This document shows positions 1-55,824 of a stretch of DNA of 64,000 nucleotides, piece after piece; the first letter of the stretch is position 1, and each line of letters opens with the position of its first letter. The notes beneath the pieces are model-generated. The model made no database searches, was not told the origin of the DNA, and was given only the letters and a program-made list of their open reading frames with translations. The DNA lies in assembly GCA_905178155.1 (NCBI GenBank), contig CAJINV010000008.1, forward strand, positions 1 through 64,000, in the 5' to 3' direction. The position numbers and the translations under genes are program-made. Origin of the DNA: Amoebophrya sp. A120 (Eukaryota; Protista; Dinoflagellata).

Positions 1-139
1 CGTAGTTTGTCATGCAGAATAGGCAACACCTAGAAGCTCAGAAACTTGGCATGCTGAGCCAGCAATTGTGGCCTCCTGTCCTCATGATACGCAACACAGC
101 ATCACAAGTTTCCAGACCCAGACACTTTTACATTTGATA
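1..139. mobile_element. Introner family A, right end only (truncated by window)
   Basis: Ends ttccagacccagacacttttacatttgata, the same terminus as the elements at 7054-7318 and 55163-55431; contains ttgtcatgc and gcatcacaa motifs. Confidence 0.85.
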
Positions 140-1329
140 CACCGTGACCAGGAAGTCGAAGCGCTTCGAGACCACGAGGCGCTGCATGAGCGAAATGTCC
201 TTCCGGCCCCGCAGGGCGCGTCGCTCTTTCACCAAGTTGTTGGCCGCGGGGTTCAGTGCATCGATCTTCTGCAGCCGCTCGTCGCGATATGACAGTGCAC
301 AACTCCCCCTCCCCCTCGTCGTTTGTATTGCATGGCGTGTAGGTGTAATACAAGCGCCAGCAAGAATGCAGGTTTTGCATGACGAATTTCCACAAGATTG
401 TAGTACTATTTGGGCTGCCACCAGAGCCTGAACCTGTCATGCAAACAGTGCCAAGAGGCAAAGGGTGAGTTTGGTCTTTTGCATGACAAGTGAGGGGGAG
501 GGGGAGTTGTGCACTGTCATATGCGAAGTTTCCGTGCCTTTTCCTTGATGGTTTTCGCAGCCCGCTTGGCGGCCATGGCACTCGCCATGGACATGCCCGC
601 TGAGTTGCTCGCCGTGGAGTCCAGGCGGGAGGGAGCTAAATTAGGGATAGTGCCAGAAGATTGAAAGTGCACTAGTGCGGATTTTGGTTTCGCGGGGGAA
701 GCGTCTTGACCTTGTCCGGCCGGGTTCGCAGTCGCCGTCGCGGTTGTGTTCGTCGCTGCAGGAGACGAAGGAGATGGATCAGTCGTATCAGCATCCGTTA
801 CAGCTGCGGACCTTCCATCACCATCAGAGAGGGCCGAAGCGCCTGATGACGTAGTGCCCTTTAATATACTCGGCTTTATTGGTGAATAATCACCTGCTGT
901 ACCACTAACAGTAGAATTCGCTTCCGCTTTGACCGATCCAGTAGCAGTACTGGGCTCCCCTCCAAGATTGGTCTTTGCTATTTCCCCAGACGGGGGAGAA
1001 GGCTCTGGTGGTGCTTTTCTTGGTACAACTATCGAATTAGAATTGGTCTTTACCGCAGGAGGGGATCCACTCGTCGCATCGGGAGCATTTGCAGACGGAG
1101 CCGGTCCTTTGTTATTGTTAGCACCGCCCTTTGGAGCAGGTATCCTCCCACTTTCAAACGACGCAAGTGGCGGCATGTTGGCCTTTTTGTTGTCAGGTGC
1201 AGCATTTCTTTGCTTGGAGCTGCCGCTACCATCGCCTTCCAAGAATTGCTTCGAGCTGCTATCGCCCGTTCTTGTCTGGTAAGCCTCGGGGGCTTTCTTG
1301 GATGTGGAATCGCCTGCGCTCTGCGTCAT
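1..1329 (-). CDS. 5' part of a probable ion-transport (voltage-gated channel-like) protein; runs off the window
   Basis: ORF 517-1329 (low-complexity N-terminus, ...KEKARKLR) joins in frame to DERLQKIDALNP...MQRLVVSKRFDFLVTV (287-140) after removing element 288-521 plus one repeat. LVVSKRFDFLVT resembles the pre-S1/S1 start of ion-transport domains; that resemblance is the only support for the product call. Confidence 0.5.
288..521. mobile_element. Introner family B (234 bp)
   Basis: Perfect 30-bp TIR tatgacagtgcacaactccccctccccctc; flanks cgcga/tgcga (4/5); removal restores frame; homologous to 51588-51807. Confidence 0.93.
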
Positions 1330-2763
1330 TTTCGGACAATATCACTGGCCTTGTGTTGCTGTTGAAGTAGGTACAACACTTGTCGGACAACTTCGACTAC
1401 CTCACTGCGGTCCGAGCGTCGACGCCATTCTGTGGTTGTGGCATCAAGAACGGCAGATAACCAACCCACATGGGCAAAATTATGCTAATGTACTTGTCGT
1501 CGCCGTGAACCACAACAACATGAATGGGCTAAACTACCTACTAAATAAAAGTTGCTCACGGATACCGATACGGAACGTAGACTAGGTAATAAAGTAGTCA
1601 CATGTTGTGGTAGAGCGAGAGGCAGATGGGGAATATGATATCGTATGGGGTCATTTGTAAATTCACATTCAGGAGGTAGGCCTGTAAAAAGGACGACGCA
1701 CGCAACCATGAGTAGAAAGAGTTTGATGGTTCTTGGAAAGTCTTCGCAATGTGTTCGAAAGTAGAACGAACGACGAGATGAGATGTCAGCTGCACGCTGG
1801 CTGAACGGACGTGCTGGTTTGTACGATGTCCTGGCGCGCAGGCACACTAGGCGATATAACGGGAACTTGTGTGCGAAGATGGACGACCGACGGCACACAT
1901 TTGATGCACCGAAGGCTTCTTTATTGAGAAGCAGTACGATCGCCGATGAGTTGTACGACAGTGTATAGCGTTTGTAGTTCGACGTCGAAAGTTAAGTAAT
2001 GCCAGCACACCAGTTCTTGTTGCAGTAGGTGGCAGCCGCAGCAGGAACGAACCGAAAACTCGATTTATCATTTTGGAGACTTGGTTGCACTTTCGTTCTT
2101 TGACAAAGTAAGCATCGCTACCGAGGGGAGCGTGGAAAATTATCATCCACGAGAACCGAAAAAGCAAAAAATCTTGCAAACATCTGAGATGCATCGAGCT
2201 GAGTGGCTGATGTATATCTACCTATGTTCCACAGACACATCATGACAGGATCGGATACTTCTTCTACTTATGCGAACAGATCTAATCTTCATCTGCATCG
2301 CAGCAGATAGTCCACTTAACCATAGACTCTTTTTGGTGTGGTTTGTCACTGCGCAGAAAACAGAATCTGCGAATGCTAAAAATGGACGCGTCTCTTGATG
2401 TGAAATACACGTCAAGATGAATTGTCCTAACAGCGCTGGAAATTAACACAAAAGGAATCAAGGCAACCTCGATATGGCACACTCTGGACCACGTAGGTTC
2501 GAGGCTATCCCTTTTCCTGTTCTGAAAAACGAAAAAAGCTCTGTCCACTAGTTGATATGCAAACAGGTGGCAGTAGAAAGTAGCGCGAAACGAGTTTCAA
2601 TAAACGAAGGCAGGCACCTCAAATGCAAACGTATAGACCACAACAAATGCGTTTAAAAAAGTATGTGAATGACATGGAGTAAGTACGCAAACTGCTGGGG
2701 GCTGTTAGTGCTATCGGTGTGGATCACCTAAGTCTACTTTAACTTTTTCATCAACTGGTGCTT

Positions 2764-5406
2764 CTACATCTTGCGCCGTTTTGCGTCTGGCGGCTGCAGC
2801 GAAGAAGCAGGTGTGACATTTTGCGAGGCAGCTTCTCTTGGAGACGAGGCGGATCCTGCCAGTTGTAGCGCAGGCATGACAGGAAAAGTCGCCCCGGCGT
2901 CCCCGCTGTTGCTCGTTTTCGGTGGCTATGCGATGCAAATATCACTCCGTCACTCCGGGTTGTTAGGATTCTCGTTGAAAAGAAACACTTGATCATGACA
3001 ATAAGAAAGCGGAAGCGCTCATGCAGTTGTCATAATTGGACGTTCAAGCACGGGATTATGGTTTGATCATGTTCATGTTGCATTTTTGAATTTTCAGCGA
3101 AAAAAACATCAAGAATGAAATAACGTCCGCATGATATTAAAGTTGATTCGCTTTCGAGAATGACGGAGGTAATATTGTTTGCGTTCGATAGAGGCATGCT
3201 GGGCGAGTGGTGGCTCCTGCGGCGGACATCGGGGGAGTGCAGCGACTCGGTGGCGTGCTGCCGCCGCATGTGCGGTGAGGATATGCCGCACATCTTCTCC
3301 GGCTGTAAAATTTCGTCCACCTGGGACTTGTTCAGAAATCCCTTCTCCACCACGACTTCGCCGACAGCCCGGTTTTCCTTCAGCGCCGTCTTCGCCACCA
3401 GGGAGGCGTTCTTGTAGCCGATGGTGGGCAGCAGGGACGTGACGATCCCGATGGAGTTGTGCACCAGCTCCCGGCAGCGGTCCTCGTTGGCGCCGATGCC
3501 GTCCACACACCGGAGGCGCAGCGTGTCCATGCCCTTGCTGAGCACCTGCATCATCATGAAGATGGAGTGTATGATCACGGGTTCGAACACGTTCAGCTCG
3601 AGCTGCCCGGCCTCGGACGCCATCACCACCGTGTTGTCCATGCCAATCACCTGGAACGAGCACATGCTCATCACCTCCGGGATCACCGGGTTCACCTTGC
3701 CCGGCATGATGCTGCTCCCGGGCGCCATGTCCGGGAGGTGGATTTCGTTGAAGCCGCACCGGGGCCCGGACGCGAGCAGCCGCAGGTCGTTGCAGATCTT
3801 GGAGATCTTGACCGCCACGCGGCGGAGGATCCCGCTGAAGAACAGCATGGCGCCCACGGAGCTGCTGGCCTCGATCAGGTCCGGGGCGAGCTGGATGGGG
3901 AGCCCGGTCACCCGCTTCAGCTCCTCGACGGCGGTCTCGCTGAATCGCGGGTCCGCGGCAATCTTCGTGCCGATCGCCGTGCCGCCCAGGTTGCAGAAGC
4001 AGAACCGGTCCACGCCCTTGGTGACCTCTTCCAAGTCGTACCCAATCGTCGTGGCGTAGCCGTTAAACTCCTGGCCCAGCGTCATCGGCACGGCGTCCTG
4101 CAGCTGGGTGCGGCCCATCTTCACGACGCTGCAAAATTCTTCGGCCTTGTTCAAAAAGGACTGCCGCAGCTGCTCCATGGACTTCACTAAATGCTTGTGC
4201 ATGTGGTGGATGGCAATCTTGGCGCTGGTTGGGTACGTGTCGTTGGTCGACTGGGCCTTGTTCACGTGGTCATTCGGGTGGCAGAACTGGTAGTCGCCCT
4301 TCTTCTTGCCCATGATTTCCAGGGCCCGGTTCGCAATCACCTCGTTGGCGTTCATGTTGGTGGACGTCCCGGCGCCGCCTTGCACCTATCCTGTGCAAAA
4401 GTATCGTACTCCTAGTCATTGCAGTCATGCATGACAAGTCTGGTTCGTTCCTTAGCTTATTCAGCATTACAAATTCCATTTTTCCTTCTGGAAAAATTTG
4501 TGATGCTATTTCTACTAGTACGATACTTTTGCAATGCATAGCACCATGTCTACCACGAAACTGTACCGCAGGTTCCGCATGATGTCCGCCTTCTCGGGCT
4601 CCTTCTCCTCGTACCGCTTATCCTGCAGAAAAGCACAACACCCAGCAATATTCAAAAATACTTATTTGCGATTTGCAGCTGTCTCAAGTGTGGTCACAAA
4701 GAATGGTCTCTTTTTGCCGGCTTTTCAAGAACGTGACGAATTTTATTTCAAGTCCTGGACTACTTGATGACTCCAGCTACAGGTCCGCATCTTTACACTC
4801 TCCATCTTTTATTTTAATTACAACAGTATGACCACAGAAATAAATTGCCTCGCTAGTGGCTCAGCATTGCAAGAAAAGGCTATCGGGACGGGAGAACAGC
4901 GAAACACAAATTCAATTTTTTCTGGTGTAGGAGTAGGTATGCTTTTCTCTAGGATAGTGGTCCGGGTCCTCGATGAGCTCGTCGCAGGCCTGCACGATCG
5001 CGACCATGATTTTTTTGTCAAGCCCACCGAGGCGATGGTTGGCCAGCGCACAGGACTTTTTCACCTGCGCAAATGCAGTGATAAACGAGGGGAACTGCCG
5101 CAGCAGCATACCGGTGATCTGGTAGTTATCCACCGCACGCAGGGTTTGCACGCCGTAGTAGGCGCCGACGGGCACTTCGCGCTCGCCGATCAGATCGCGC
5201 TCCAAGCGGGTCGGCCCCGTGATGGAGACCGGACACCCGCCGTGGCGCCCGTGACGCTGAAACGACAATCCTACACTCTCAGCCGCGGATCCGCCTGCCG
5301 ATACATTGCTGTGGCGGGCCGGGACGTTGTGGTCTACCGACAGGTGCTGGTGCGTTCGCGGCGGAGAGCCAGGCTTGGTCGGCTGGCCTGCGGGTGCGCT
5401 CGACAT
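2764..5406 (-). CDS. aspA: Aspartate ammonia-lyase (aspartase), 4 exons
   Basis: Motifs GEREVP..AYYGVQTLRA, VDMVQGGAGTSTNMNANEVIAN, HPNDHVNKAQSTND, KMGRTQLQDA, GSSIMPGKVNP. Exons ~5406-4957, ~4618-4545, 4385-~3191 and ~2925-2764. The last exon (...PPDAKRRKM*) is inferred from frame only. Confidence 0.92.
2927..3190. mobile_element. Decayed introner (264 bp) forming the last aspA intron
   Basis: Starts tatgcgatgcaaa, ends tttgcgttcgata; flanks gtggc/gaggc (4/5); residual catgacaa and ttgtcat motifs; removal gives in-frame SPSMPPKTSNS. Confidence 0.6.
4387..4540. mobile_element. Introner family C (154 bp)
   Basis: Ends tatcctgtgcaaaagtatcgtact ... agtacgatacttttgcaatgcata; perfect DR gcacc; removal gives VVDMVQGGAGTS. 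Can be excised as a GT-AG intron at 4544-4386. Confidence 0.95.
4619..4956. mobile_element. Older introner (338 bp, family E) with eroded TSD
   Basis: TIR tatcctgcagaaaagca / tgcttttctctaggata (15/17). Flanks ccgct/gtggt match only 2/5, but removing element+5 gives in-frame EDPDHYEEKEPEK. Confidence 0.75.
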
Positions 5407-6455
5407 GCTGATGTTCTTTTTTAGATAGTTTAGCAGTTGAAATCAATTCGGCGGCAAGCGCGATGCAAAAAGAAAAAGAAATGGATTTATTTACTATTTC
5501 CAGGAGGTTCTTTAGGTCTTCGGGAAAAGAAGATAGGTGGATCGCACAGATTATACAAGGAAAACTTTTATTGAAGATGAAATAGCGGTTGAGGCGAAAT
5601 TAAATAGCGAAGGATAATGACAAAAGGTGTTCGCTGCTAGGAAGAGCTCCACTAGGTAGAGTAAACTTTGAATGTTAGCAGCCGAAAATGATGCATGTTT
5701 CACATCAAGAGCAAACTGCAGAGAAGGGGGCATTAAAATGGCAGTGTGAACTTTCGATTTTCAAAACCGACAAGCACTATAGTACTTGCCTCTGGCAACC
5801 GATGTGAGCGCTCGTTATTTCCATTTCCTCATTTCGTGGACAAAACAGAAATTTTTTTTTTTACAAAAGCAGGGTCATAAATTTGCTTCAACAGGTTGAC
5901 TACATCGCTGGTATTAAAGTACGTAGATCTGTCTTTATTGAGTAGGCATGCAGGCAACGATGTGACCGAAGGCAAGGGAACCACCTGTGGTATCATCACC
6001 GATAATGAGGATGCTTTTAGTTTCATCTATATCGTTGTCGCGTCGATGGCACATCAGATACATACATCCTAGCTCTTGTAGTTTCCTATCGGAACAACTC
6101 AATGGGTTACAGGAGTGCAACCTCAAGTGTCTATCGCAAGGTGGCCGTTTTTCCGGCATTCCTTCCACATTCTTGTAAGTAATCTTTTATGTTGACATCG
6201 AGGAGGCACCGTCGTTATTGTTTCAGGAGTCTCAATTTCTAGGAAGGCAGGGGTTCTGCTACAGGAGCTGCCCTTGTACCGAAGTACTGCGGGTTGCAGC
6301 TCGAGTTTAGAATAAATGTGGGAATTCTACTTTTGTCCACCCTTCGTTTTTCCGCATTTGCGTTGCAGCTTTTCCAATAACAATATCTCCGTCTACTGCG
6401 ACTGTTCGGCTCCTGATTTTGTTGAAGAAACAGAAACACCTTTCGGTTGTTCCTA

Positions 6456-9283
6456 TTAAAGCTCCTCGTCCGAGTCTACGCTCGCTTCTCCACTTTTTTC
6501 TTCGTAACTTTCTTCATCTTGCTTCTGCTGCTCCTCCTCGTCGTCGCTTTCCGCTTCAGAGTCGGTGCCGTCGCCGTTTTGGGCCTTCTTATACTGCTCG
6601 TTCGCACGTCGCAAGTCCTCCTCCTCTTCTGAGTCCCGATCTAGATCCGTTCGTCGCGCCACGTATGCATTGCAAAAGCATCGCACTAGTAGAAATCGCA
6701 TTACAAATTCGGCCCGCATGAGAAATAGAATTTGTCATGCTGTTTCACCTTGGAATAGAGAATTGTAATGCATGATTGCGATTACTACAAATACGATACA
6801 GTAGTTGCACAGGCTACCACAGTTTCCTCATAAATTTCGCGCATGTTGTAGTTGTACCGTTTCTGGTATCCTGTGCAAAAGTACCGCATTCGTACTATAT
6901 CGCATTGATGCATTACAAATTTCCTTCTCAAGCTAAATGCGCATTAGAAATTCCACTTCTCATGATGAGGAAATCTGTCATGCGATTTATACTACTACGA
7001 TACTTGTGCAGTGCATATCTGGTACCGCCTCTTCATCAGTTCGCGCACGCTACTATCAAATGTAAAAGTGTCTGGGTCTGGAAGATTCTGAGAAATGTCA
7101 TGCATGTTTTGCATGACCCAGGATGTCTGTAATGCACGACCGCGCATCACAGATTTTGCGCTGGCTTCCTGATGGCTACTCCGCATGACAAATGCCCTCC
7201 CCGCGTAGCACAAAGTAGACTCCTCGTCTTGCTGGTCATGCAATACAGATTTTTCTAGAGTCCAAGGTTAGCATCACAAGTTCCAATCTTCCAGACCCAG
7301 ACATTTTTACATTTGATAGCTCCCCAAGACCCCCTCGTCGAAAAAGGTCACATCGTGAAACACCATGCGTATGGATTGCAAAAATGTCTGGGTCTGGAAG
7401 GATGCGAACTTGTGATGCGTGTTGCGGATCATACAAAAATCTGTGTTGCGTGACTTTCAAAAGGTCCCCATTTCTGGCCATTCTGAGAGGGCATTTCTCA
7501 TGCAGAATAGGCATCACCAAGGGGCTCCAGAACCTGTGATGCCAGGCCCTGCATTCCAGACTTGGCGGAGCTTGGAAAAACTGCATGACAAGTCTCGGAA
7601 TCTTCCAGACCCAGACATTTTTGCAATGCATAATGCGACTACCGTCCTCCCTCGGTGGCAGCGGCGTGCAAACCGTCTCGTTCGTCGGCAGGCTAGCCTT
7701 CGGCCGCGTTTTGGAGAGGTCCGGGATGGTGTCCAGGTTCTCCGCCCAATGAAAATCATCCTGCCGACTCCACCTTGTCGATACAATTACAAGTGCCTTA
7801 TAGAGGTTTTCAACACGACTGGCACACGCACAGACACACACACGTGCGGCATCGAGAAAGGTCATGATGCATGATCAGCAATTTTGTCCTGCGTGAGGAC
7901 TTGGCCATTTAAGTACGGTTTACAGAAGGTTTCTTTGTGTTTGTAGTTTCTCATGTGAAGATAGAAGAGTACAACTTACCAAACGTTGACCGCCAGATTG
8001 CGGGTTCCCCCAGAATTGACCTGGTGAAACCAGCCGTTGGGAATGAAGAGAATGTCGCCCTTGTACATCGTCAGCCGTTGCTTCGGCACGTGAAAAAATT
8101 TGGGGTGCTTTTTCAGGTTCACCCGATCTTGGTTGATCCTGGAGTAGCCCCCCTTGATCGCAATTTCGCGGGCAAACTTGGGGTCGATCAGCGTGACGAG
8201 CTTGCTGCCCTCCTGGAGCATGAGAAAGTTGTCGGCGTCATCTTGGTGCAGCACGGAGCTGGTGCCTCCGCTGGAGAACCAGATGGTCATCGACTGATAC
8301 AGGTTTTCCTCGCAAGCCAGCATTCTGGGGATTTCCACATCGCTCTGCAACCTCTCCTCCGCAGATAACTTCTTTTTCGATGAACTAGATTTGGCGGCTC
8401 TGGTTCTTTTGGAAGATTTGAGGTCGAGCATCTTGCGGTTGTGCAGCACAAATTCGGGCGGCGCGCCGTCCTTCGCCTTTTTCCCCTTCGGGCCCTTCAC
8501 CGCGAACGCTTTCATCAGCCCCGCAGGACTTTGGCCGAACTCCGGGACCGCCTCGGTGCCGATGATGGCATACAGATCCTCCACGTCCTTGCGTTTGATG
8601 AAGTCCTTGAACAGCATCTGTGCTCGGGGCCCGCCCCGGACCTCCGATTTGGATCGTTCCGCATTCACAACAATTTTGCCGATCTTTTTGTCCTTTGCAA
8701 AGTACTGGTCGGTCCACTTCTCCAAGAAGGGGTTGCGGAAGTTCGCGTTCCGGAACAGCACCGGCTGGTGGTGTCGGGCGTACTTCTCGTAAAATTCTGC
8801 CCAGTCGATTTCGCCTGATACCACCGGCACTGTGTTGGTCGTCGCGGGAAAGTCCGCCATTGGCGCCCCGTCTAGTTCGTGGAATTTCTTTTTACCGCCC
8901 GAGGATTTAGTATCCTCCTCATCGTCCTCATTCTCCTCCTCTATTGCCTCCGGGATCTTCTTCGTGCTGCTCGGGCGATCGTTTGAGTTTGTGGCTTTCT
9001 TCGATTTTTCTGCGTCACTGGTGGCACTTGCTGCCTTTTTGCCACCGCTATCCTTTTGCTTGTTCTGTTTCTTTTTCGCCTTTTTTTCACTTTTGGCTTG
9101 CTTCGCACTCTTTTTTTTCGCACCACTTTTTTTGCCGACAACTTCCAGGGTGGGAAGTTGCTCCTGTGATGTGCACAGCTCGTGAAATGGACGCAACAGA
9201 GACACGATCACGAACGAAGTAGCTACAGCACGAGTCACGAAGCCACCAGTCGCACGAGGCAAGTAGCTTGCCATGCCCGACAT
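6456..9283 (-). CDS. JmjC/cupin-8 domain 2-oxoglutarate oxygenase, probable secretory-pathway protein ending DEEL
   Basis: ORF 7976-9283 has a hydrophobic N-terminus, PVLFRN, SVLHQDDADN and GDILFIPNGWFHQV (HxD...H triad). A GT-AG intron (7979-7774) and four introners follow; the spliced tail reads NVWWSRQDDF...GSRMVFHDVTFFDEGVLGSVRELMKRRYQKRYNYNMREIYEETVARRTDLD...SDEEL*. Confidence 0.88.
6664..6816. mobile_element. Introner family C, reverse orientation, diverged (153 bp)
   Basis: Starts tatgcattgcaaaagcatcgcactag, ends tgcacaggcta (ATA end mutated to CTA); flanks ccacg/ccaca; removal restores frame. Confidence 0.85.
6867..7017. mobile_element. Introner family C (151 bp)
   Basis: tatcctgtgcaaaagtac ... 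gatacttgtgcagtgcata; perfect DR tctgg. Confidence 0.92.
7054..7318. mobile_element. Introner family A (265 bp)
   Basis: TIR tatcaaatgtaaaagtgtctgggtctggaagatt / aatcttccagacccagacatttttacatttgata; flanks gctac/gctcc. Confidence 0.94.
7370..7632. mobile_element. Introner family A variant with C-like tips (263 bp)
   Basis: tatggattgcaaaaatgtctgggtctggaag ... cttccagacccagacatttttgcaatgcata; perfect DR atgcg. Confidence 0.94.
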
Positions 9284-9983
9284 GATTTGGATTTGCCTGC
9301 AAAAAACGCCTTATATAGAGGATCTGGTTTCTGGTATTTTTAGTACTCTTTTCTCTGCTGCTTCCTATAATTCTCTGTTCAATGATGCAATGGGAAATCT
9401 GAACCTTCGCGTTCTCCTTGACATCTCGGGATCCTTGCACGAAGATAACGCTAGGAATGAATGAACACGTACTTAGTTGGAGGACACACTGGCCCCGTCT
9501 TCCACCTTGTTGCAACTCCAAGAACAAAACTCCGTGAACGAAGTGATCACTTAGAAGTACTGACGGCGGGACCTCTTCTGTGTCAACATATTATCGTTGG
9601 TACTTTACTATGTATCGTGGCATCTGTCTCGGCGACCGCGTGAAAGAAGCCGTGACTTTTGTCAGAAAAATCGTCACATGTTCGGCGGGGGACGGGGGCG
9701 TCTTCACCATTTATTCGATGCGAGAACACGTGGATCCCAGTAATAGCCCCTACTAGTTACTAGGTTCGCGCGCTGTCAAGATTCGCTGGGACATGCTGCA
9801 ACCACATAGTAGAGGTTGTCTTCATGGATATTGTCGCGGAATTTTTTTGTCGCTTGGTGTCGCAGCCAATCGTCGAGCAAAACGGAGCGAAGGCGCTTGC
9901 TTATGCTTTTCCTGTCGTGAGCAGAAAGTAGTTTCTTAGTAGAGGAACAGGGGTCTTCAACAGCTTTTCCTTTTCGCCGACCT

Positions 9984-11779
9984 CTACAAATCCGCATTTT
10001 TGCCTCGCGTATTGCTTTTGCCCACGTGGTCGTCTGATGATGTCTTGAGGTGGGTGCTTTCTCTACTTTCCTTGACAACAGAATCCGCAGCCTCTGCCCA
10101 GTGACTTGCTTCCTCTCCATCTTCTTCGTCGTCGGGAAACAGGCTAGTAGTCGTCCCTGAGCGGCCTGTGCTCGGGTTTTTTTTGCTGGCGTGGACTTCT
10201 TGTGTTCTGTTGCTCTGGTTTTCTGGATCCGAAGACGCTGGCACTTGTTCTCTCCTATCTGAAGATGATGCTGAGCTAGAACCACTTCTTATTTTCGCCG
10301 TTGAGGACGAAGAGGAACTTCCTGAAGCCGCAGCACTGGAAGCAGCACTACCGGCTGCTTGCTCCGCCTGCTCTGCGGCCTCCTCCATTTCGAGATCTTT
10401 GAGTTTCGGCAGCTGAAGGCGAGAGGAAGATTCGGGCGGGGCGATTTTGTTCACGCCCCAATCGATCAGCTCGTCCACCGGCCATCGCAAATCCTCAAGC
10501 TGGAAGCTGCTCCGGGACAACTCATTTCCTGCCGCGTAGAAGAGGAGCAAGAAGAGGGCCCTGATAGATCGATAAATTGAACGTCGTGCTGTACAAGTTC
10601 AAGTGAGTCTACAATTTCACCCGCTTCATGTAAAAATTCCTTCAGGCGACTTTATGGCATGTTGGAAACTAAAAAAATGTCTGATACACTACTAACAACC
10701 GTCGGTGTCGCAGAGCCAGAAGCAAGTGGTTGCTGATCGATGCTGATACAAAAGTATGTCCGACTGCGACAGGAAGATTTGGATCCAAACAAATCAAGAT
10801 CTGGTACCTGAGTATGAGAAAAGCCTCGTCGTCACAGGTTTTCGCGAGAAACCACAACGGACGATGAGCTTCGTACCACGGGAGAGAGTCATCGAACAGA
10901 TTTGGCATGAGCCAAAACTCGAAGCCAATAATCCAGAAGACCAGAAATAGCAGAATGCGTAACCAGCAGAAGACGATGAAACCGACGGAAACAAGGACGG
11001 CACCGTACCAAAGGAATAGCTTGATCCACATAGGCCATACCGGAAAAAGGATCACCATTATCACCGCAAAAACGATGAGAAACTGTAGTGATAGTTTGTG
11101 CTCTATGTGTAGTTTTATGGAATGATCATGAAAACGAATATCGGTATCATCGTCAAGGTCAATGATGAAGGCGGAAAAATGATAAGATGGATACGTAACA
11201 TGTCTAAGCGTTAATAGCTAGTCCTAGTTGTACTATCTTCAGCAAGACACCGAAATTAAAAAATGACAATGAGTAGCACTACTACCAAAACGAAATCGAT
11301 GACTGAGAAAAAAATACCGCGTATAGTCGGTGATAGGGGTCCGGCTTCTCGTAGTTAATGATGTAAAAGTCGTCCTTCCCGAACCAGCCTTCTGCTGTCC
11401 GCACGATGCGTTCTGGCCACTTCTTGGGTTTTGCTGTGGAGCCAAGCGCCTCGTACCGTGCTCGGCTTAGTATCCTGCTGAGCAGCAGCTTGTTCATGAT
11501 TTCTTCCGCCACTGCTGGCGTTATCACTGTCAGCTTGCGCTCCAGCAGCCGACCGAAAACGGCCAGGTAAACCGGGTGCTTCGCCCGGAGCTCTTCCATA
11601 GTGAAACAGTAGTCGCGGCCGCGAAAGTAGGTCACCTTTCTGCGCCCGAGCTCAGACGTTACTTTCACCCCCGTACTCAGGCCGGTTTTTCCGGTCGTGC
11701 GTACCCCGCCCTTGGCCCGGGACAGCAACGTCACCGCGTCTTTCACCGGTTCTGTCCATTCCGGTAATTCTTCCTCCAT
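9984..11779 (-). CDS. SEC62: Translocation protein Sec62, 3 exons
   Basis: Motifs VTYFRGRD, KPKKWP, ILFPVWPMWIKLFLWY, LRILLFLVFW, FWLMPNLFDD. In-frame GT-AG introns at 11317-11083 and 10807-10561. Confidence 0.9.
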
Positions 11780-12649
11780 GATTATCGAGCCAATATATAA
11801 CTTGGTTTTTATCGATTTATGCGTGAGGAGAGCAAACAACACTCAATGCGCTCTGGTGCACAACCACAATATCGCGCTGCTCAACAGAAATATTAATATG
11901 GTGCCAATACTCACGATAGGTCAATTTTCCAAGTGCGAGAGCGAGGGCCAGGGGCCAAAAAAAAAATGTGGAATGATCGGGTGGGAACAGGACTATTCCT
12001 AGAAAATTCCTTTGGAAAATGAAATCGTAATCGATCAAGAAATTATTTTTTTAGGACAAAAGTGAGGGATATATTATTGAGGATCAGTGACAGTGAGCTG
12101 CTGGGGTCGTTTTGGTCTTCAAGTGTAATCGCTGGAACCAAAAATTAAACGACCGAAAGAAGGGTGGAGCTGATTTCTTCTTGTGCGTGCAATGGCCATG
12201 ATCAGGATCTTCTCATCAGAAGGGCGAAGTCTCGGAAGGCGATGGAAAATAAGGCGTCACCAGCTTGGAGACAATTTTTGTTTGTTACTGACGCAAGAGC
12301 CTGCGCATATTTCGTGGCTTTGTCATCTTACACGTGCGATAGCGATCACGCAGGAAATTATGTCGGTCGTCAAAACACTAACCCCAAGCTAAGTATTCAA
12401 ATTATGTTGCTCCTGGCGGACGCGCGCTTCTGCTCGCAAAGCGTGCCGTGACATCTCAGATTTCGACTCTGCGGCGAATCTTCGTTGTAGGCGGTGCCGG
12501 ACAAAAGCATCTTTACTCCTCCCCTTCAACACCAGCAAACATGTTTACGAAAGCCATATTACACAACAAGATGTCAATCAGCAACCTGAGTACTAACTAC
12601 AGTACATTCTTCCATCCCGCGATGAAAGGGACACGACTCGCTTCGCTTC

Positions 12650-15600
12650 TTAGTCGTCTTCACCAGATTCCTTCTTTTGCCTCAAAATTTCGTCGTATTC
12701 CGAATGCGGGAGCGGCTGGTCGGGCACTGTTAGTGCGGACGTGAATTGCGGATTCATTTCATGCAGGGGGGGCGCAATGTTCTCCGGCCACGCCTCCATT
12801 TCGTCATCTAGGGCAGCGCCTTTCACCTGCACAGAGGTGCCACTTCCAGTGGACGGGGCGATGTGGTACGGTTGTTTCATCAGCCGCCGCGAAGGAGCGC
12901 TGGTGCCAAGAACGCCCCCCGCCGCCGTCCCGTTACTGGAGTTGGTGCTATTTGATTTTGACTCCGGGATCAGATAGCTCGGAGACTGTAGCGCTGGACT
13001 CCGGGCTGCGCTCGTCTTTAATATCACAGGACCACCAGGAGTAGCTCCTCCGGGGTCAAGTTGACGCTGATCTGTTTTTGATGAGGTAAAAACAGTACCA
13101 CCTCGTCCCTCGGTCGTAGTACCTTGATCAAGGTCGTTTGCGTTGCTCAATGTGCTGTCCAGTGCATTGGAATCAACGGGTCGTCGTTGATGTTCCGAGG
13201 TAGTGGTTTTTGCGTCAATCAAGGAAGGCGCAATTTCGTCCTCATCGACGTCAACGTCACCTGCACGACCAGAGCTTGAGTTTGCGGCACCTTGCGAAGC
13301 GGCACTAGTACCAGGCACTGTGCTATCAGAAGGTGCGGCTGTGGATCCTGAGGAAGAGAAGGCAGCTGATGTGGATGATGAGGATGACGAAGCGAACAGA
13401 AGGTCCCGCGACGCAGACGACGGGCTGGAAGATATTTGGCCGCGAATCGCAAGGAGGTCGGGCGCATGATCTTGGTCAATTTTTTCAAAATCAGACCCGG
13501 AGCTCTTGATTTCGATCTTGGCTTCCATTTTCGAGCGTTCGAAAACCTCCTCGATCACTTTGGCCTCCTCAGCATCGTCCTCTTCGTCTTCGTCTTCCAG
13601 AGCAGCATCCTCCCCACTCACACTGGATATGCGCGTGGTCAAGAATTGCTCCGCTTGTTCTTGCGCGGGCAGTTGCTGCTGTTGATCCGCGATTTTTTCG
13701 ATTGCCGGCGGCGCAGTCGGTGTAGTCGGTTTGTTCGCCGCTTGGTTCTGCTTGGTCGCCACGACAAGCGCGTCGGACAATTGCTCCGACTGTGCCCCCT
13801 CTTGTAGCTCGGCGGCGGCAATTTTTCTGGCACTGACGGCGTGTTCGGACACTTCTGTGTCTACTGCCGGAGTCGACATTGCGGATGCCGGAACCACGCC
13901 GATGTCGTCATTTTGCTCATCATCTTCTGCGGACGATGAAGAAGCGCCAGTACTGCTACCTACCCCGAGGAGCATTTTCTTCATCTCTTTACTCGCGGCT
14001 TCGACATCTGTCTCCAAAAGAAGGTCGGGCGCAGGGGGCGCTCCACCGCCCCGAGCGGCGTCCTCGTCCGCTTTCCTGGTAGGGAAATCGCCACCTTGTG
14101 ATGTCACCGCTGGCGTCGAAGCTACTTCCTGATTTTCGTCTACGCTACCTGGTGCCCCCGGTTGCTGGGTTGAAGCACTAGAGGACTGTTGCTCTTTGAT
14201 ATTACTCAGACTGCCTGTAGTACCGGTTGCTGTCCCAGCAGCTGCAAGAAGTGACGCGGTGCCACTCAAAGCTGTAGTTCCTGCGAGCGCGGCTTCTTGC
14301 CGACTGCTGATCGTGCTTCCGGTGGGGCTGTTGGTGCTGAAGTGTAGGCTTTCCGTGTCGCTGAATTCGTGGTCCTCATCCAAGAAGGTCGCGGTCGTGT
14401 GAGTGGGCGCGGTGGGGATGGGGAAGTTCAGAGCCCGCGCCACTTCGCGGTCACTCGAGTGCTGCAATGAGCGGCCCGCGGCCAGCAGTTTGCGGTGGTG
14501 GCAACACTTCCCGATGCCCGGCTTGAGGTGCGGACCGATCAGCAGCGCCCACTGCAGTCGCACGTGCCGCACCTTGTCCGCAGCGAGGTCGCCCAGATTC
14601 GTCAGAAAAAACGACACAAACCGGCGGCTGACAGTGTTGTCCCGGATCAGGGAGTCCACCATCTTCAGATAGGTGATGCGGTTCTGAAAGTTTCCGTCTT
14701 TGAAGGTTTTTCTCAGGTGATTCACGATGCGCTTCGTGCGGAGCGAGAAGTACTTGTTGTTGTAAAAATGATTCATCTTGTTCCCAGACTGTATCGCCGA
14801 ATGTAGTTGTCCGGTTGTAGTTGACGAGGATCCTTTGCCCGTTGGCGTGCTGCCGACGCTCATTGTGGTCGTTGCCATGGTGGTTCTGGGAGAGGGATCA
14901 AATTTGTTAGTCGCGATCATATTACCTCCGCCGCCTCCGCGAGAAGAGGACACCGATGCCGGAGAGTCGCCCGACGATATTGACGAGGCAGGGCCACCAG
15001 CGGTCATGTGATCCGATTCGCCGCTGCTACTCAGTTCGGCACTGATTTTCGACGGTGAGGGGGACGACGCATTGGCACCTCCTGGAATATTAACACCGCC
15101 CCCTCGGGTCGTCGACGAGGAAGTATGTTTTCGTGCCTCTTCGCAGACGGCCTTCAAAACCAGATGGGTGGCGGCTGCTGCTTTGGACCGAACGAGTGCG
15201 ACGCCGTCGTGTAGCAATTTGAGGTACGTGGGGAGCAAGTGAACGAACACCAAGTTGTGGTCGTGGGTGTATTTTTATCCTGTGCAAAAGCATCGTACTC
15301 GTATAAATGCAGGTCTCGTCTTGCATTACAAATCCTGTTCCCAAGGCAAATCTGCATTACAAATTTTATTTCTCATGCTGAGGAAATTTGTAATGCATTT
15401 ATACGAGTACGATACTTTTGCAGATCATAATTTTTCGCAGAGTGCCGGCAAGCTGACCGTGGCGATCAGGTGGCGCAGCCTCCAATTGTCCGTGGATGCC
15501 ATCATGTGCGAGAGGCCCATCAGATACTGCGGATGAACCTCAAACATGCCCACGTGCTTGGCGAGCCCGAGTTTCACGTCGTCGCGGTCCTGCGTGAACT

Positions 15601-20999: not shown

Positions 21000-21199
21000 A
21001 CCCGACCTGTGCTTGTTCTTGTTGTGCTTTGTCTTCACAATGGAATCAGATGTATGAAGAAGAAGCCACTTTTTTTGCACTTCCTCGACTTTAAGACTTT
21101 ATGTGAATTATGCACAAGTAGAACCTCGTCCTTTCTGTGTAGTAAGTGTAGCGATTTTAGTGCTACATACTTTATTGAGGAACCCGAAGAAATTTTAGT

Positions 21200-48523: not shown

Positions 48524-51500
48524 TTAATGGAGCCGTTTGTCGAAAGGATCGTGTGGGTTCATCTTTTTCTTCTGAAATTTCGAGAGCGCTCCGCCCATTC
48601 CCTTGTGGATGCCCTTCTTTTCTTCCTCCGCCTCGAACGCGGCGTAGAGGCGTTCGGTTCGCTCCTTGGCGGCCTGCTCCCGCGTGGCCCGTGCGTCTTT
48701 GATTTCCTCCTCCTTGAGCTTCTCGAGGCGCTCCTTGTCTGCGGTACTGAGGAACCCGGGAACGTGGTACGTGTCCTCCACCACTTCCTCGTCCTCGTCG
48801 TCCAAGTCGGCCAGATCGATTTCCTCATCACCGAGAATGCGGGGTCGCTTCTTGTTGGCGGCCTTGTCCCCGGTCGCTTTCTTGTTCGCGGCCTCGCCTG
48901 CCGCTGTTCCAGTCGTGTTGAGGCCCGCACTGATTTCGGCCTTCTTGGAAATGACGCCGGTGCGGCTCTGCAGCAGACTGCTGCCCACGGCGTCCTCGTA
49001 GTAGCCCAAGCCCTTGATTCCCGTCTTGAACACGTAGCCGAGCTTGCTGCCGCCGAAAGTGTCGCACGGCTCGAAGAAGGCGTCGCGCTCCCGCTGGTTC
49101 ACGCCCAGCTCCTCCAGCAGTTTGTTGCGCTTCTGCAGGAAGGCCGCCGTCTCCGGGTTGCTGAGCCCGGCGTTCGCGAGGCTCTGCTGCTGGAGCAGCT
49201 TCTGCTGCTGCGCCGCTTGCTCGGCGTTCTCCATGGCCTGCTCCGCCTCCGCCATCGGGTTGAGAGAGACTTTGTCCTTCAGCTCGTCCAGTTGGCTTGT
49301 AATATCCGGCGCGTTGAAGTGGACCTGCGGAAATTGCAATTTTTTGATCTAGTGATTTCATTAGAAAAACATAAATAAAGACAAACTCCATACTGTAACG
49401 GTCCTCAGGCTCGTCGGGCAATAGACGAGGACTACGAGGAGTTTCTACTCCAGGGGCAAGGATTTGAAACTTTAATGTAGTTCCCGCCCAAATCTTGTTA
49501 GTCATTGCTGAGAAGGAGAGCTCAGACCGGCGCAAAAAAGAAACACAACGATATAATTCTCCAGCATCAACCACGTCGGCAAGAAGATCATACCTGTGCG
49601 TACGCAGCCTCGACGGAGCGTTGGATTCTTCGCATTTCCTTGAAGGTCTCGGCGTTGCCGTGTCGCATCTCGAACGTCTGCCATATTTCCCAGAATTTCG
49701 GGTACTTGCGCGGGTCGCAGTATTGAGAAATGTGCTCGTAGATGACGCGTGCCCGAGCAAGCTCTCCGAACGAGTTTTCCAGTTCGGCAAACAACAATCC
49801 AAAATGAATCAGGCCATCGCCCTCTGGAAGAGTATCTACAGCAGCTTTGAGCACATTCCTGCAATTGTTTTTGAAGACGTATCGTGATCAGGTACATAAT
49901 ATCATTCATTGTGAACAACGAAAAAGCTCGCCTTATCATGTCGTGTGCGAGGGTGAGGTGAAGGTGGCGCGGACAAACAAAAAACAGCGTGTTGAGGCGA
50001 TCGCGATCGTGAAAATAATTAGACAACATTAAGCTTTCATCTTGCCAACGCCTGTCGTGAAAGAAAAACAGATATCTTGTTCATAAATCTTCTGCAACAA
50101 AAAAAAATGGCGGTATCGTTGAAACAATGCGCTGTACCTGGCCACATCGCCGCCCTTGATTTCTCCCGTTCGGACTAAGAGCAGCGTCCACATCTTCAAT
50201 TGCGCGGAGGGGTCCTTGTGCACCGCCTCGCACGCCTGTTGGTAGATGGAGAGGGCCTTCTTGGCGAGCCCGTACCGCTCCTCGAGCTTTCCGTAGAGCA
50301 CGTGCAGGCGCATCTGCATTATTTCGCTGCTAGAGCAGGCCTTGATCGCTTCTTCGAACAGGTCGCGACTGCGCTCCAGCTTCTTCGCCTTGTAGCGCGT
50401 GACGAACTTGCGCAGGTAGAAGAGCCACAGGTCGAAACAGTGCGGCTGCTTGAAGAGCGTCACGCCCTTCTCGTAAACCTTGAACGCCTGCTCGAAGTAC
50501 TTGCGATCTTCCAGGTAGTGCGCGAAGTTGATGATGACCTGCGGCGTCGCGATTTTCAGGTCGATCATCTTTTCGTAGGTGGCCTTCGTCGTTTCGAACG
50601 TGCCAAAATTCTCCTCCAGGTCCAACGCCAAGTACCACAGCTTTTTCGATCGCACCGACTTCATGCGCGCAATGTTCGTCGCCCGCTCCTGCCGGTCGGT
50701 GGGCTGCGTGATGCTCGCGCGGGCCAGGTTCAGGGCCTCTTGAAAGTTGTCGTGCCGCAGCTCCATCTCGATCCACTCGCACCAAATGCTAGCGAGGTCG
50801 TCGGCGTGGGCAAAGTGTACCTTCACCGCCTCCTGGAAAAGGTCCCGCACATTCAGAGACAGGTCCCCCTCGTCCTGCTCTTCGAAAAACCGGGCAAACT
50901 GGACCCACAGATCCTGGATCTTGCCTGTGCGTTGCGATAGTGGGAAGTTTGTTTTCAACATATTTTTGCCGGAACTTCGATAATTCCGATGTAGAAGTTA
51001 TAGGTATCGGCAGCCTCATCATCATACTCAGAGATACAGAACAAGATCATGCGTGATCAACATAGGTGGCGCTAGCGTAGCGCTGCTATGGGTGCCATGA
51101 GTGGAATGCATTGATGGTAACGCTGCAAAATAAAACACGATGTACATCAGCGAGCTCGACGTTCGATACCAGATCCAGATTGGATGCAAACAATACGTAG
51201 AAACAAAAAAACGCGAAGTTGGAAGTTTGTTTGTTGATGTTGTACTTGTACACGGCGCAAAAAACTATACAAGTCCAAATTGTAACATGAACAGTTCTTC
51301 TTTTACCTATGCACTTCTTCGGATCGATGGCAGCTACGGCTTCTTTGTAGGTCTGCACGACCATTTCGAGGTTGTCGCGTTCCTTGTAGATTTCCACTCG
51401 TTTGAGCCACTCCGCGACCACGTGCGGATTCTGGCGCAGCAAAACCGAGTTCAACAGCAGGGGGCGGTTGTCCATTAGATCTTCGAGGATGGCGAACTGG

Positions 51501-53150
51501 AGCTCTTCGCCGACCTTGTCCCGCTCATCAACGACTTCCAACCAGTCGGTGAGAAAAACCTCGTAGGACTCATAGACCAGTGCAAAATATAACAATGCAC
51601 AACTCCCCCTCCCCCTCATTTGTATAGCATGAACGGCAATACAAGCATCAGCAAGGATGCTGGTCTTGCATGACAAATTTGCACTGGAGTATAGTCTGTG
51701 CTATTTGGGCTACCAGAACTTGTCATGCAAACAATGCCAAGAGGCAAAGGGTGATTTGGATACTTTGCATGACAAATGAGGAGGAGGGGGAGTTGTGCAC
51801 TGTCATACAAAATCGTGGGCCGTCACAATGGTCTCGATGGCCTCCTGGTAAATCGCCCGGGCCTTATCAAACCAGGCGAGCCGAATGAAATGGTCCGCCA
51901 GACAAATCCAGAGCCTACCCACCTGATAATATTGGAAAGATTTTTACGTATGGACACTCATCTTTTCATCTGCATCGAAAAATTTTCGCACTAGGGTCTG
52001 ATGTATTTGGGAAAAGGTGTGGTAGGAATAGGTTTTCACCACGCGACAAAGAATGTGCAAAAAAGAAGAACAGATAAAAAGACCCCGCAAGGCCATTCAT
52101 GTACCTCGTCGGTGAATTTCCCGATTCCCTGGCGGATGATGGGTTCAATTTTTATCGACCGGATTTCTCGGGGGTGTTTTGAGATGAGCTCGCAGAGGTC
52201 GAGCCAGAGCTGGTGGCGGGACTTGCCGTTGATGCTGACAAAGTCCTCGTCGTTCAGAATCTCGACCATTTTCACGGCTGCTTCGTCGTAGATTTCCTGT
52301 CGAAGGAGGTAGGCGATAAAGGTCTCCACGTGGCTGGGCTCCAACATCAAGTAGCGGCGGAAGAGCGTGAGACAGGTCTTCTGGGGGATGACCGCGTGTT
52401 TGTACTTGGTCCCGCCCACCCAGGGAATACCAATGTTCCATACCCGGTGATGCTGCTGGATCGGGAGGGTGCGAAGCGCCCCGTCGATGGCACGGCGGGT
52501 TTGCGTCACGCGCCGCTGCTGGATTAGAAACTCGAGGTAGTCGAGCCAGATGCGCGGCATCTTGTGCATGAAGATCAAACACCGGTCGTAGATCGCGTTC
52601 ACCTCCGCGTAGGCCTCGTCGGAAATCGGGTCGAAATTCTTGTTCCCATAGTGTGCCTGCTCGATCTTTCGTCGTTCGTCCAGCGACTTCCTTCGCTCTA
52701 GCAAATATCTGCGCCACAGCTTGTACGACATCGGCAGTGTCTGATAATTAATGTGTTGGACTCATTTCATACATGTCGTGAATTGAACAAAACTTCTGCA
52801 GTGTCCTCGTCCTGACCACATCGACGCCAATCAGGTGATGATGTGTAGTAAAATCATTCACTATGTCTTAACTTTGGATCACCAGGAACAACATCAGCAT
52901 CAGGGATGAAAAGTATAAAGATCTAAAAGTAGATAAACATGTAAACTTTCATTCTCACCTTCAGCGCCCGTTCGTACATCAAGTATCGCAGTGCGGGATC
53001 GGTCTTCTTGATCGTGTCGATGTACGTGATCCACACCCTAGGCCGGTAGGGATCCAGCGTCAACTCCTCTTCCAGTGTGTCATTGAGCACCGAACTGAGG
53101 TCGTGCAACACACTGTTGGACGCGGAGGAGCCACCGTTCTGCATCGACAT
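48524..53150 (-). CDS. SYF1: Pre-mRNA splicing factor SYF1/XAB2 (HAT repeats), ~7 exons
   Basis: YERALK|TLPMSYKLW, MHKMPRIWLDY, LPIQQHHRVW, LLNSVLLRQNPHVVAEWLKRV, DDLASIWCEWIEMELRH, DLKIATPQVIINFA, KKLERSRDLFE, FEMRHGNAETFKEMRRIQRSV; GT-AG introns plus one introner. Confidence 0.95.
51588..51807. mobile_element. Introner family B (220 bp) in SYF1
   Basis: tataacaatgcacaactccccctcc ... ggagggggagttgtgcactgtcata; perfect DR caaaa; removal gives VTAHDFALVYESY. Confidence 0.94.
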
Positions 53151-54374
53151 TTTGCAAGGAAGAATGTTGCTCCTGCTCCGTGAGTCGAGTGCGAGTCGTC
53201 GCAAAAATAAGGTCGTACTAGAAGACACTGCTTTGCCAACTTCTAAGAATGTGACTACGAGTAACACTAGAACTTAGTCACCTACTTGGCCGCAGAAAGT
53301 GAAAGTCGTCCGGCAACAACGTAAAGATATTTACATGGTTGCTTCGCCTTTGCTAGTAGTAGAAGTACGCTAGCCACAGGACATCAACCAAGAGATATTG
53401 CCCAAATGTCGTGGTGGAAAGATGTAGATGTCATAAACCTAATGCTGATGGTCGCCGTCGCGTAGAAATATAACTGTCGGTGTCGCCTGGAATGCAATTA
53501 CAGATCATGAAATCAAAGGAGAGAAAACACGGATCACATATCTATGGAAAAATAAAATTAAGCACGCTTAGTACAGGATCGCTTCCGGTGCATTCGTGAG
53601 TCTCAAAAAAAAAAATGAACTGATCTACATCCTCATATGTGTTGAACCAGTTGCAATTGTTGTAGAGCCATTTTTATCGACTATTGATGGGGACGAGCAA
53701 TAGTCATCCGCGAAGGATCTTTAGCAGGAAACAACGATCGCAAGTTTATTGCTTCTGCGCAGTGAATATTGAATGATCGCGAAGGAGACTAATAGAGGAA
53801 AAATGCGCCATCGTTTGCAGCTACAGAACTCCAGTATTTAACTCGCTGAGATTGCGACAATGACTGGCTCACGCACAAGTAGGTACCAAAGCACGATGTC
53901 ATCAGCGGTGAATCATCGTGTGCACTGCGTGCAATTCCGAGTTAGTGGTTCAAGACCAAGAGTGCATCAAGTATGCAATCCTTTTCGTACAAACAAAACA
54001 TGTATTTCAGGCATTGATATTAAGTAGCTTCTGCGTTCTCATGCGCGATCCATGTGAAAAACATTTTCATTTACATTTTGTACATGAGCTGAGAGACCAC
54101 GGGCAGCCTTTTCGCAATTTTCTTTTCATTTCATAAAAACTTAGAATAAATCTGCAAAGAGGAGGAGCAGCAAGCGTCCGCGTTGCGTTCATCGTCATTT
54201 ATTCGACCAGCAGTTGCTTCGTAGTATTAAGAATTATATCACGAGAAAAAAGCACCTCTCCTCGAGAATCACGTTGTCCAAGAGGGTTCGATAGCATCTT
54301 TCCCTTTGTCGTCGAGCTTTTTTTTATCTCGTAGTGCTATTTATTGCATCTTCTGGCGGTCCTCTCCTCGGCGA

Positions 54375-55824
54375 CTACAGGATGATCTCATCCTGAAACG
54401 CGGCTTCAGAAACACCAGGCCGCAACAGTGACGGCGCGGGATTTTCTGCTTTTCCTTGCTTGTAGCTACTGTCAATATTGCCGGCCAACATTTTTTCGCT
54501 CTGCGCTCCTCGGCTCGGATTTGGTTCAGTTCCCACAGGCTGCTCCACCTCAGCACCATTGAGGACAGGTGGTGTTTTGCGGCAGCAGCTGCGCATCGCG
54601 TTGTCCGAGTCGTAGGGACAACACTTCTCTTTCGTCTTGGGGGACCCGGGCCAATCTTCGCAATACGGGGTGGCTGGCGCCTTCGCGAAGAGATCCGGGG
54701 AAATGTCGCCGATGTAGTGCGTGTCGCCAAAACCGCCGACGTAGTGGATTTTCTCGACGGATGTCGTCCAAAACGTAAAGTTGTGAGATGTCATGTGCTC
54801 CCACTGCCGCGCGTCGGGGTGCTTGGCGAAGAAACAGTCGGACACGCGCTGGTACTCGCGTCGCTCCGCTGGCGAGTCAGCGCCAAACCGCGCCCCAGGT
54901 TTTGCTCGCCCGAGAAAAGTGACGCTGTGCAGCGTCATTGGGTCGATGGCTGTGTCGTTGGCGTTGGGCGCTCGCACATGGAACGACACGTGGTTCTTGT
55001 AGTGCAGCACCGCGTCCAAGGTGGCCTCCAGTGGGCTCGAAAAGATCCATATGTCCTGCTGGTTGGCGCAATCTGCCGCGATTTGCTCCACCTGCCCGAA
55101 CGGAAAATCTTGGTACTGCGGGTCCCGGTAGTAGCGCACCATCATGGTTGCGAAACCCTGCTTATCAAATGTAAAAATGTCTGGGTCTGGACGAATGCAA
55201 CTTGTGATGCTATTTTTGGAATCCAAAGAAAATCTGTATTGCATGAGCAACAAGAGGCGTCCAGTTTTTGCTCCGCGGAGAGGGGATTTCTCATGCGGGA
55301 TAGGCATCAAGATGCCCGCAAAAAATCTGTGATGCTACGGCATGCATCACAGACATCATTGGTCATGGTCATGGAAAATATGCATGACAAATCTAGAAAT
55401 CTTCCAGACCCAGACACTTTTACATTTGATACTGCTGCCCGAGTAGCTGCTTCGCCAGCGACGCGGCCTGGTACTCCGTCGGGATAGTCTGAATATCTGT
55501 AGGGGAGCTGGTGCTCCTACTGTCACGTCTCCCTGCTTCAGGATCTTCATCGCTGTTACGAGGCAAGAGCAGATCCTTGTGGTCTGACTGGGAGCGACGT
55601 CGAAGAAGCTCAACATCAAACTTCTGATGATCTTCGAGACCTGCCACATAATCCGTGTAGCTTTCCTTGGAGCTGCTGCTTCTTCTTGCAACCTCAGTTT
55701 TCGGATTTGCCGTTCTTTCCGCAGCAAAACACATTCGTGAAAACCAGCGGCCGTCGTGGGCGAATAGGAGAAAGACCAGCTGGATCTTGCTTCGTCTTCG
55801 AAGGACAGAGCGATTTCTCATCAT
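54375..55824 (-). CDS. CREG-like / pyridoxamine-phosphate-oxidase-like split-barrel protein, secreted-type
   Basis: FPFG, CFFAKHPDARQW..SHNFTFW...IHYVGGFG; ORFs 55420-55824 and 54375-55310 join as LLGQQGFAT across element 55163-55431. Confidence 0.82.
55163..55431. mobile_element. Introner family A (269 bp)
   Basis: 29-bp TIR (28/29) tatcaaatgtaaaaatgtctgggtctgga; perfect DR ctgct. Confidence 0.95.

Follow-up and report, generated by a model that had tools for sequence, protein, structure and literature searches.

An internal motif with fixed spacing in the TAT-ended introners of Amoebophrya sp. A120 and its possible role as a DNA site in mobilisation

The dinoflagellate Amoebophrya sp. A120 has about 29,850 repeated introns (PMC7789003). 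Here we describe introns of this kind, or introners, in the first 64,000 nucleotides of contig CAJINV010000008.1 (assembly GCA_905178155.1, forward strand), a stretch referred to below as the window, and report a 9-bp word, GCAT[GCT]ACAA, that recurs inside them at fixed spacings and is probably a DNA site used in their mobilisation. The introners of A120 were described by Farhat et al. 2021 (PMC7789003) as having inverted repeats that start with TAT and carry a run of A, 5-bp direct repeats (legend of Fig. S19) and splice sites offset by 1-5 nt from the inverted repeats (legend of Fig. S23). The elements described here share these ends, direct repeats and offset splice sites and, being present in an A120 host, repeated genome-wide and removed in a non-canonical manner, belong to the same class. 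Elements, ends, duplications and offset splicing are thus already published; the internal motif, its 31- to 33-bp pairs and its phasing to the ends are additions.

Elements and families

In the window we delimited 13 complete copies of four families (A, B, C and D, corresponding to families 0, 1, 5 and 6 of the wider sample), three old degenerate elements and one element cut by the window edge. They are listed below with their 5-bp duplications, their motifs, same-strand motif pairs (given by position), the distances of end-facing motifs from the tips, and joints found in four contig runs that we guessed to be RNA (two samples from one study, covering window positions 1-20000).

1 to 139: incomplete family A introner, of which the window edge leaves only the right part; motifs 7 (-) and 99 (+); an RNA contig piece ends at 140, as a loose end
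288 to 521: family C introner; duplication CGCGA/TGCGA; tip distances of end-facing motifs 35 and 32 bp; RNA joint 283>523
2927 to 3190: old TAT..ATA element, motif decayed (best site 8/9), still spliced; RNA joint 2921>3191 in 4/4 runs
4387 to 4540: family B introner in a lyase-family (aspartase/fumarase-like) gene; duplication GCACC; motifs 4429 (+), 4464 (+) and 4498 (-); RNA joint 4381>4541
4619 to 4956: old TAT..ATA element without a strict motif, duplication decayed, still spliced; RNA joint 4614>4958 in 4/4 runs
6664 to 6816: family B introner; 31-bp pair 6732/6763; RNA joint 6658>6817
6867 to 7017: family B introner, oriented opposite to its neighbour; duplication TCTGG; pair 6910/6941, 31 bp apart; RNA joint 6861>7018
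7054 to 7318: family A introner; pairs 7095/7127 and 7240/7271; tip distances of end-facing motifs 41 and 39 bp; RNA joint 7048>7319
7370 to 7632: family A introner; duplication ATGCG; pair 7410/7441; tip distances of end-facing motifs 40 and 41 bp; RNA joint 7364>7633
15276 to 15429: family B introner; duplication ATTTT; pair 15323/15354; RNA joint 15270>15430
16053 to 16061 (-): the sole strict motif outside elements, within chance expectation
17422 to 17686: family A introner; pair 17605/17636; tip distances of end-facing motifs 41 and 42 bp
17732 to 18039: family D introner; duplication CTGAC; pairs 17773/17805 and 17876/17908; tip distance of end-facing motifs 41 bp at either end
20254 to 20552: family A introner; RNA contig pieces end at 20248
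29564 to 29716: family B introner; duplication CATGC; pair 29632/29663
32706 to 33023: old A-like element with one surviving motif (32966)
51588 to 51807: family C introner in the SYF1 gene; duplication CAAAA; pair 51636/51668; the deposited SYF1 protein jumps from 51809 to 51586
55163 to 55431: family A introner; duplication CTGCT; pair 55202/55234; tip distances of end-facing motifs 39 and 41 bp

Duplications were scored for 14 window elements and are exact in eight, match at 4/5 positions in five and at 3/5 in one. An exon of SYF1 (50143-50922, minus strand) encodes a sequence with 100% identity to the Amoebophrya sp. A120 protein and 78% to that of A25.

For a wider sample, a second assembly was searched with the exact family A terminal inverted repeat (TIR) pattern, which ends before the first motif and does not include it. 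At least 141 loci were found, and L001-L141 (694 kb after merging into 126 pieces) are the basis of the wider counts. Since a family A pattern was used, the number of family A copies and the conservation of family A TIRs are inflated. The second assembly contains a single clear stretch matching unique window sequence, at 81-85% identity, and for this reason we treat it as what appears to be a related strain. Window and listed loci together yielded 477 elements in 33 clusters; the 13 largest clusters, with 2-202 members each (456 elements), are the families analysed here, to the exclusion of one pair and 19 singletons. Across families the elements are 109-322 bp long, with no coding capacity seen. 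An exact 5-bp duplication flanks 344 of the 473 elements with flanks, in all 13 families, and no insertion target preference was seen. An earlier note on this DNA had called the TIRs of the motif-bearing families unrelated. This was overstated: besides the duplications common to 13/13 families, all 26 family-consensus ends begin with TAT and 18-24 of the 26 have A at positions 11-15, and the TIRs diverge mainly from about position 16 onward.

Enrichment and consensus of the motif

The earlier note had listed the motif in families A to D, in both orientations, and had judged it scarce in flanking DNA by eye. We find 32 exact matches in the window (20 on the plus and 12 on the minus strand), spread over all four families; nine of ten positions given before are exact, and the tenth, ~4497, is 4498. 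All matches but one (16053) lie within the 3,997 bp of elements, which corresponds to 7.8/kb versus 0.017/kb in 57,772 bp of unique DNA, and the other repeats of the window (2,231 bp) contain no strict motif. A Markov model predicts about 1.9 matches for the entire window, so that the motif passes far above background in the frequency comparison set beforehand. The three RNA-confirmed GT-AG introns of the window contain no strict match (weak matrix scores of 9.3, none and 7.5).

The same holds in loci L001-L141, where the strict motif occurs at 8.4/kb in elements versus 0.18/kb in unique DNA; a third-order Markov model of the elements predicts 46 matches, and 1,002 are seen. Among 90 matches in unique DNA, 47 have a second degenerate site within 120 bp, compared to a background of 18%, which suggests that many of them are probably decayed elements. 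Viral contigs gave no match to the TIR-plus-motif pattern. A matrix built from 77 sites in the family consensus sequences reads G C A (T/a) (G/t/c) A C A (A/g), often followed by AT, and base counts at position 5 are G 730, C 345, T 274 and A 18. Independently of the matrix, GCAT.ACAA is the only 9-mer of the 4.4-gapped form that is present in the interiors of 13/13 consensus sequences, the runner-up, an overlapping word, being present in 10/13.

Spacing of the motif

Among the 77 consensus sites there are 21 same-strand pairs spaced by 31-33 bp, in 12/13 families, whereas permutation gives a mean of 2.9 and a maximum of 11 in 5,000 trials. At the level of single copies, 62 of the 145 strict-pattern pairs within 70 bp have this spacing, or 59 of 96 without family A. 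By eye, the 22-24 bp between the halves of the 21 pairs have no sequence in common. Further recurrent spacings are 15-18, 33-34 and 46-49 bp. The first end-facing site lies 31, 31, 31, 32, 32, 35, 40, 41, 41.5, 42, 43, 51.5 or 54 bp from the tip, thus mostly at 31-32, 40-43 or 51-54 bp, and these offsets are phased with R 0.75 at a period of 10.5 bp (p 4.5e-4). Left ends of family 4 have the end-facing site at 54 (15 copies) or 43 bp (8 copies). The motif is thus constrained in position, which answers the question raised by the earlier note, and it has the character of a subterminal repeat, a repeated short word inside the ends and positioned relative to them.

Conservation of the motif

Substitution rates were estimated on trees of 430 copies from eight families and are given relative to spacer sequence. 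For the motif core the estimate is 0.20 on internal and 0.44 on terminal branches. For position 5, inside the same word, the values are 1.15 and 0.99, and this position serves as an internal control against an alignment artefact. TIR positions 10-30 change at 0.31 on internal and 0.59 on terminal branches (conservation inflated for family A by the search), and positions 4-9 at about 1.1. Conserved TIR positions 1-3 (TAT was required by the search) and 10-30, with 4-9 at the spacer rate, form a tip-plus-binding-region pattern. The stronger constraint on the motif core on internal branches fits selection at transposition.

We propose, with a probability of roughly 0.65, that GCA(T/A)NACA(A/G) is a putative double-stranded DNA binding site for a protein needed in the mobilisation of TAT-ended introners, because its spacing is fixed, it is phased to the ends and its core is conserved around a free middle base. 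In this model, two protein subunits would bind the same side of the double helix at a distance of three turns, and would be held by the end-facing site in register with an enzyme at the TAT tip. Such a phased assembly could help to pair the ends of an element of 110-320 bp.

Several observations weigh against this proposal. The core rate on terminal branches does not increase with branch length (0.40 on long branches) or with decay of the duplication (0.46 versus 0.43); terminal branches include unsampled parent lineages, however, and their rates therefore decide neither way on a function after insertion. The phasing to the ends derives from 13 non-independent values, with a p of 0.025 if the period is scanned and R flat between 10 and 11 bp. 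The family B end-facing offset of 35 bp is out of phase, family 10 lacks an end-facing site, and right ends of family A have theirs at 39-40 (114 copies) or 32 bp (43 copies), a step of 7-8 bp and not a full turn. The 46- to 49-bp spacing is half a turn out of phase, and within families the spacers of pairs are only modestly more constant in length than other spacers (51/506 versus 132/739 copies off by at least 2, p 0.065). Finally, a long-TIR search and a crude residue-pattern scan of 0.76 Mb revealed neither a transposase nor an autonomous element, and PMC7789003 likewise reports finding no transposase in A120.

The motif could instead be recognised, as DNA, by a host protein acting on copies already inserted, in silencing, chromatin or transcript handling, and be kept by the host rather than by transposition. 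We give this explanation a small chance. It would account for the slow change of the core on every class of terminal branch (0.40-0.47 relative to spacers) and for a strand-neutral, helically spaced motif, as expected of any double-stranded DNA site, and alveolate ApiAP2 factors are described as binding a similar-looking octamer, TGCATGCA, and tandem arrays (PMC6631176). However, internal branches, which represent the lineages that spread on, show twice the constraint, and most motif sites have disappeared from the old copies at 2927, 4619 and 32706. Moreover, the motif is nearly absent from unique DNA, and the apicomplexan octamer itself is ruled out as the enriched word, with 2 occurrences in 119 kb of elements versus 13 in 566 kb of unique DNA.

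Splicing of the elements

The four RNA runs contain 10 joints over nine elements, in addition to the three GT-AG introns. Every element joint skips the element plus 5 nt, and 10/10 joints fit a single offset only, fixed by the element at 4619-4956, with 1 nt removed ahead of TAT and 4 nt beyond ATA, in line with the Fig. S23 legend of PMC7789003. This ruler removes exactly the length of one duplication and opens a frame of 615 codons at 2790-5406. No joint was listed for the elements at 17422 (family A) or 17732 (family D), where RNA cover is low. Adjacent family B copies in opposite orientation are both spliced out. One joint, 6659>7019, found in one contig of one run, skips these two elements together with the 45-nt exon between them at the same offsets, and represents in-frame exon skipping by alternative end pairing. 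Since this joint lies at the outer ends of two neighbouring elements, the paired ends appear to set the splice sites. Splicing would thus depend on the paired ends and the ruler, and not on the motif.

The earlier note had offered the motif as a site for a splicing helper or as a means of extending internal base pairing, and neither suggestion was borne out. An RNA signal or pairing element might be expected to aid the removal of introns that are spliced without GT-AG, in a genome reported to lack U1 (PMC7789003), and inverted motif copies 15-18 and 33-34 nt apart could form hairpins. With the host strand inferred from codon use for 296 of the 477 elements, the motif lies on either strand of transcripts without bias (658 versus 691). 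The six consensus sites of family 2 are all on one strand, yet this family has inserted 14 times in sense and 14 times in antisense orientation. If inverted motifs paired, their position-5 bases should match, but matching is close to expectation, at 0.46 versus 0.42 in 13 near pairs and 0.27 versus 0.30 in four terminal pairs. Only two of the 13 near pairs exceed it, both in family A and each with a weak site (0.51 versus 0.30 and 0.56 versus 0.31). In transcript orientation, G-U is not in excess over A-C in motif pairs (53 versus 45, p 0.48). The elements at 2927-3190 and 4619-4956, without a strict motif, are spliced exactly in 4/4 runs. An RNA role of the motif is therefore unlikely, given no strand bias, no overall pairing match and continued splicing of motif-decayed elements, and we allow it only a slim chance. 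In the TIRs, the G-U excess is borderline at positions 17-26 (70 versus 48, p 0.053) and absent at 4-16, and end-to-end covariation at positions 4-9 is clear in family 3 only. The position of duplication mismatches in transcript orientation was uninformative in 50 elements.

Once motifs and TIRs are masked, alignment exceeds that of shuffles for 4 of 78 family pairs (z 3.1-5.2, A-B among them), and remote common descent of the families, to which TAT ends and 5-bp duplications common to all also point, is likely and probably true, but leaves retention of the word unexplained. That the motif is a functionless leftover of one repeated-unit ancestor or a product of mutation bias, for which one could cite the CpG-poor (0.61) and TpG-rich (1.47) composition of the elements and the TG/CA steps inside the motif, is strongly disfavoured, since 74 of the 78 masked pairs do not align, the core evolves five times more slowly than spacers while position 5 keeps the spacer rate, and matches exceed the third-order Markov expectation as given above.

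Search for the mobiliser

The earlier note had also named a common transposase as the binder. What stands is a DNA site tied to mobilisation, from its spacing, phasing and core conservation; a transposase is a candidate for the binder, none having been found. The residue-pattern scan for an autonomous element gave 28 matches, none convincing by eye, and reading frames of the window at 58.9-64 kb and of locus L055 contain nothing transposase-like by eye, no Pfam scan having been made. Longer TAT elements were considered as autonomous partners and rejected: those inspected contain unrelated inserts or are two elements taken together. Introners of 370-970 bp (L019/L020, L035, L036, L056-L058) carry unrelated inserts between intact ends and duplications, one insert type being a AAGAAAATC-type tandem array.

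If the motif is a DNA site for mobilisation, the binder would more probably be the shared DNA-binding part of an integrase-like (Ginger/Copia-like) transposase, although we draw this more weakly than the site itself. A co-opted host factor is possible and a real alternative to a shared transposase domain, because the TIR body varies by family while the motif does not. We also considered, as a doubtful extension, that one machine moves all TAT introners of A120, reading only the TAT tip and the phased pairs, with the TIR body mostly a sequence-free RNA stem for splicing and the binder perhaps a host protein rather than a transposase. If true, this would put mobility and splicing in separate parts of an element of 110-320 bp and would explain why there are many TIR families where no matching transposases were found.

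Comparison with known systems

The duplication made by hAT elements is 8 bp, which the 5-bp duplication here does not fit. There is nevertheless a likeness to the hAT element Hermes, in which the transposase is described as contacting short internal words, repeated in both orientations, through a second DNA-binding domain and separately from the TIR (PMC10368747); here, such a site is predicted. The Hermes repeats are short AAGT-type words, distributed unevenly between the ends of one element (PMC10368747). The present motif, unlike these, is a gapped 9-bp word with a fixed three-turn spacing, found across families with different TIR bodies. IS607 is similar in that a paired-end complex is nucleated by directly repeated motifs of 9 bp, which are helically phased and lie 20-60 bp inward of the end, but IS607 elements have neither TIRs nor duplications, use a serine enzyme and have a one-turn spacing (PMC6188088), compared to three turns in the spliced elements here. 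Thus, the proposed action of the motif would resemble that of Hermes repeats and IS607 motifs, and the elements belong to neither group.

Ginger2/TDD elements have TIRs and an integrase-related enzyme, with 5-bp duplications in TDD-4/5 only and 4-bp duplications in Ginger otherwise (PMC2836005). The TGTNR termini of Ginger differ from the TAT ends found throughout here, and Ginger2 is described as preferring RTATAY targets (PMC2836005), where we see no target preference. A candidate for the enzyme class is family 38 of A120, classed as Ginger with '5-bp TSD, TA/TA Termini' (TSD, target site duplication) in row 580 of file 8 of Gozashti et al. 2025 (PMC12130899) and described there as having Copia/Gypsy-similar reading frames, TIRs and a length of about 810 bp. 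By description alone, it shares the 5-bp duplication, TA termini and TIRs with the present families, and differs in length from these elements of 109-322 bp, in which no coding capacity was seen. Most of the 58 A120 rows of that file are classed as 'Unknown', and none mentions an internal motif.

In PMC7789003, 'gcat' is absent from the main text and the three 9-mers are absent from the text of the supplement, figures not being covered. More widely, we found no description of an internal motif or spacing rule in the literature, the supplements of the main papers included and figures, external consensus files and subscription papers being outside the scope. Among papers matching the bare 9-mer, those listed (20 of 247) were all unrelated by title. 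The available text of the Roy et al. preprint (10.1101/2020.10.14.339549) does not mention Amoebophrya, and that of PMC11282704 speaks, for Amoebophrya, of TSDs and TIRs only.

Other features of the window

At 21480-21790, a family A-like end in decay, with a single weak motif, lies at 21790; its opposite end was not located. A GC-rich element of 1,038 bp at 60989-62026 has 20/20 inverted ends starting with TTAGA and a 5-bp duplication, AAGAG, and is free of the motif. Families of A25 are described as starting with TTA and two purines (PMC7789003), and this A120 element has such a start. A GC-rich segment at 59967-60687, in which no TAT ends were recognised, recurs in locus L055 (82% over 734 bp) and in merged L056-L058 (71% over 287 bp).

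The host strand was inferred as minus at 12/12 element positions tested in the window, which fits the co-oriented gene blocks reported for Amoebophrya. Bins containing elements have a summed contig depth of 1e4-1e5 versus 25-50 elsewhere in one contig run, a value that is not a copy number. Between 2067 and 9113, DNA and RNA contigs agree with each other in several single-base differences from the window, which mostly has T there; these are probably errors of the window assembly.

Conclusion

A word common to all 13 families examined, with a fixed geometry, provides a bait for the mobilising protein and a marker for autonomous partners and decayed copies. The results presented here also separate two jobs within these elements: the motif appears to be tied to their spreading, and the paired ends to their splicing.

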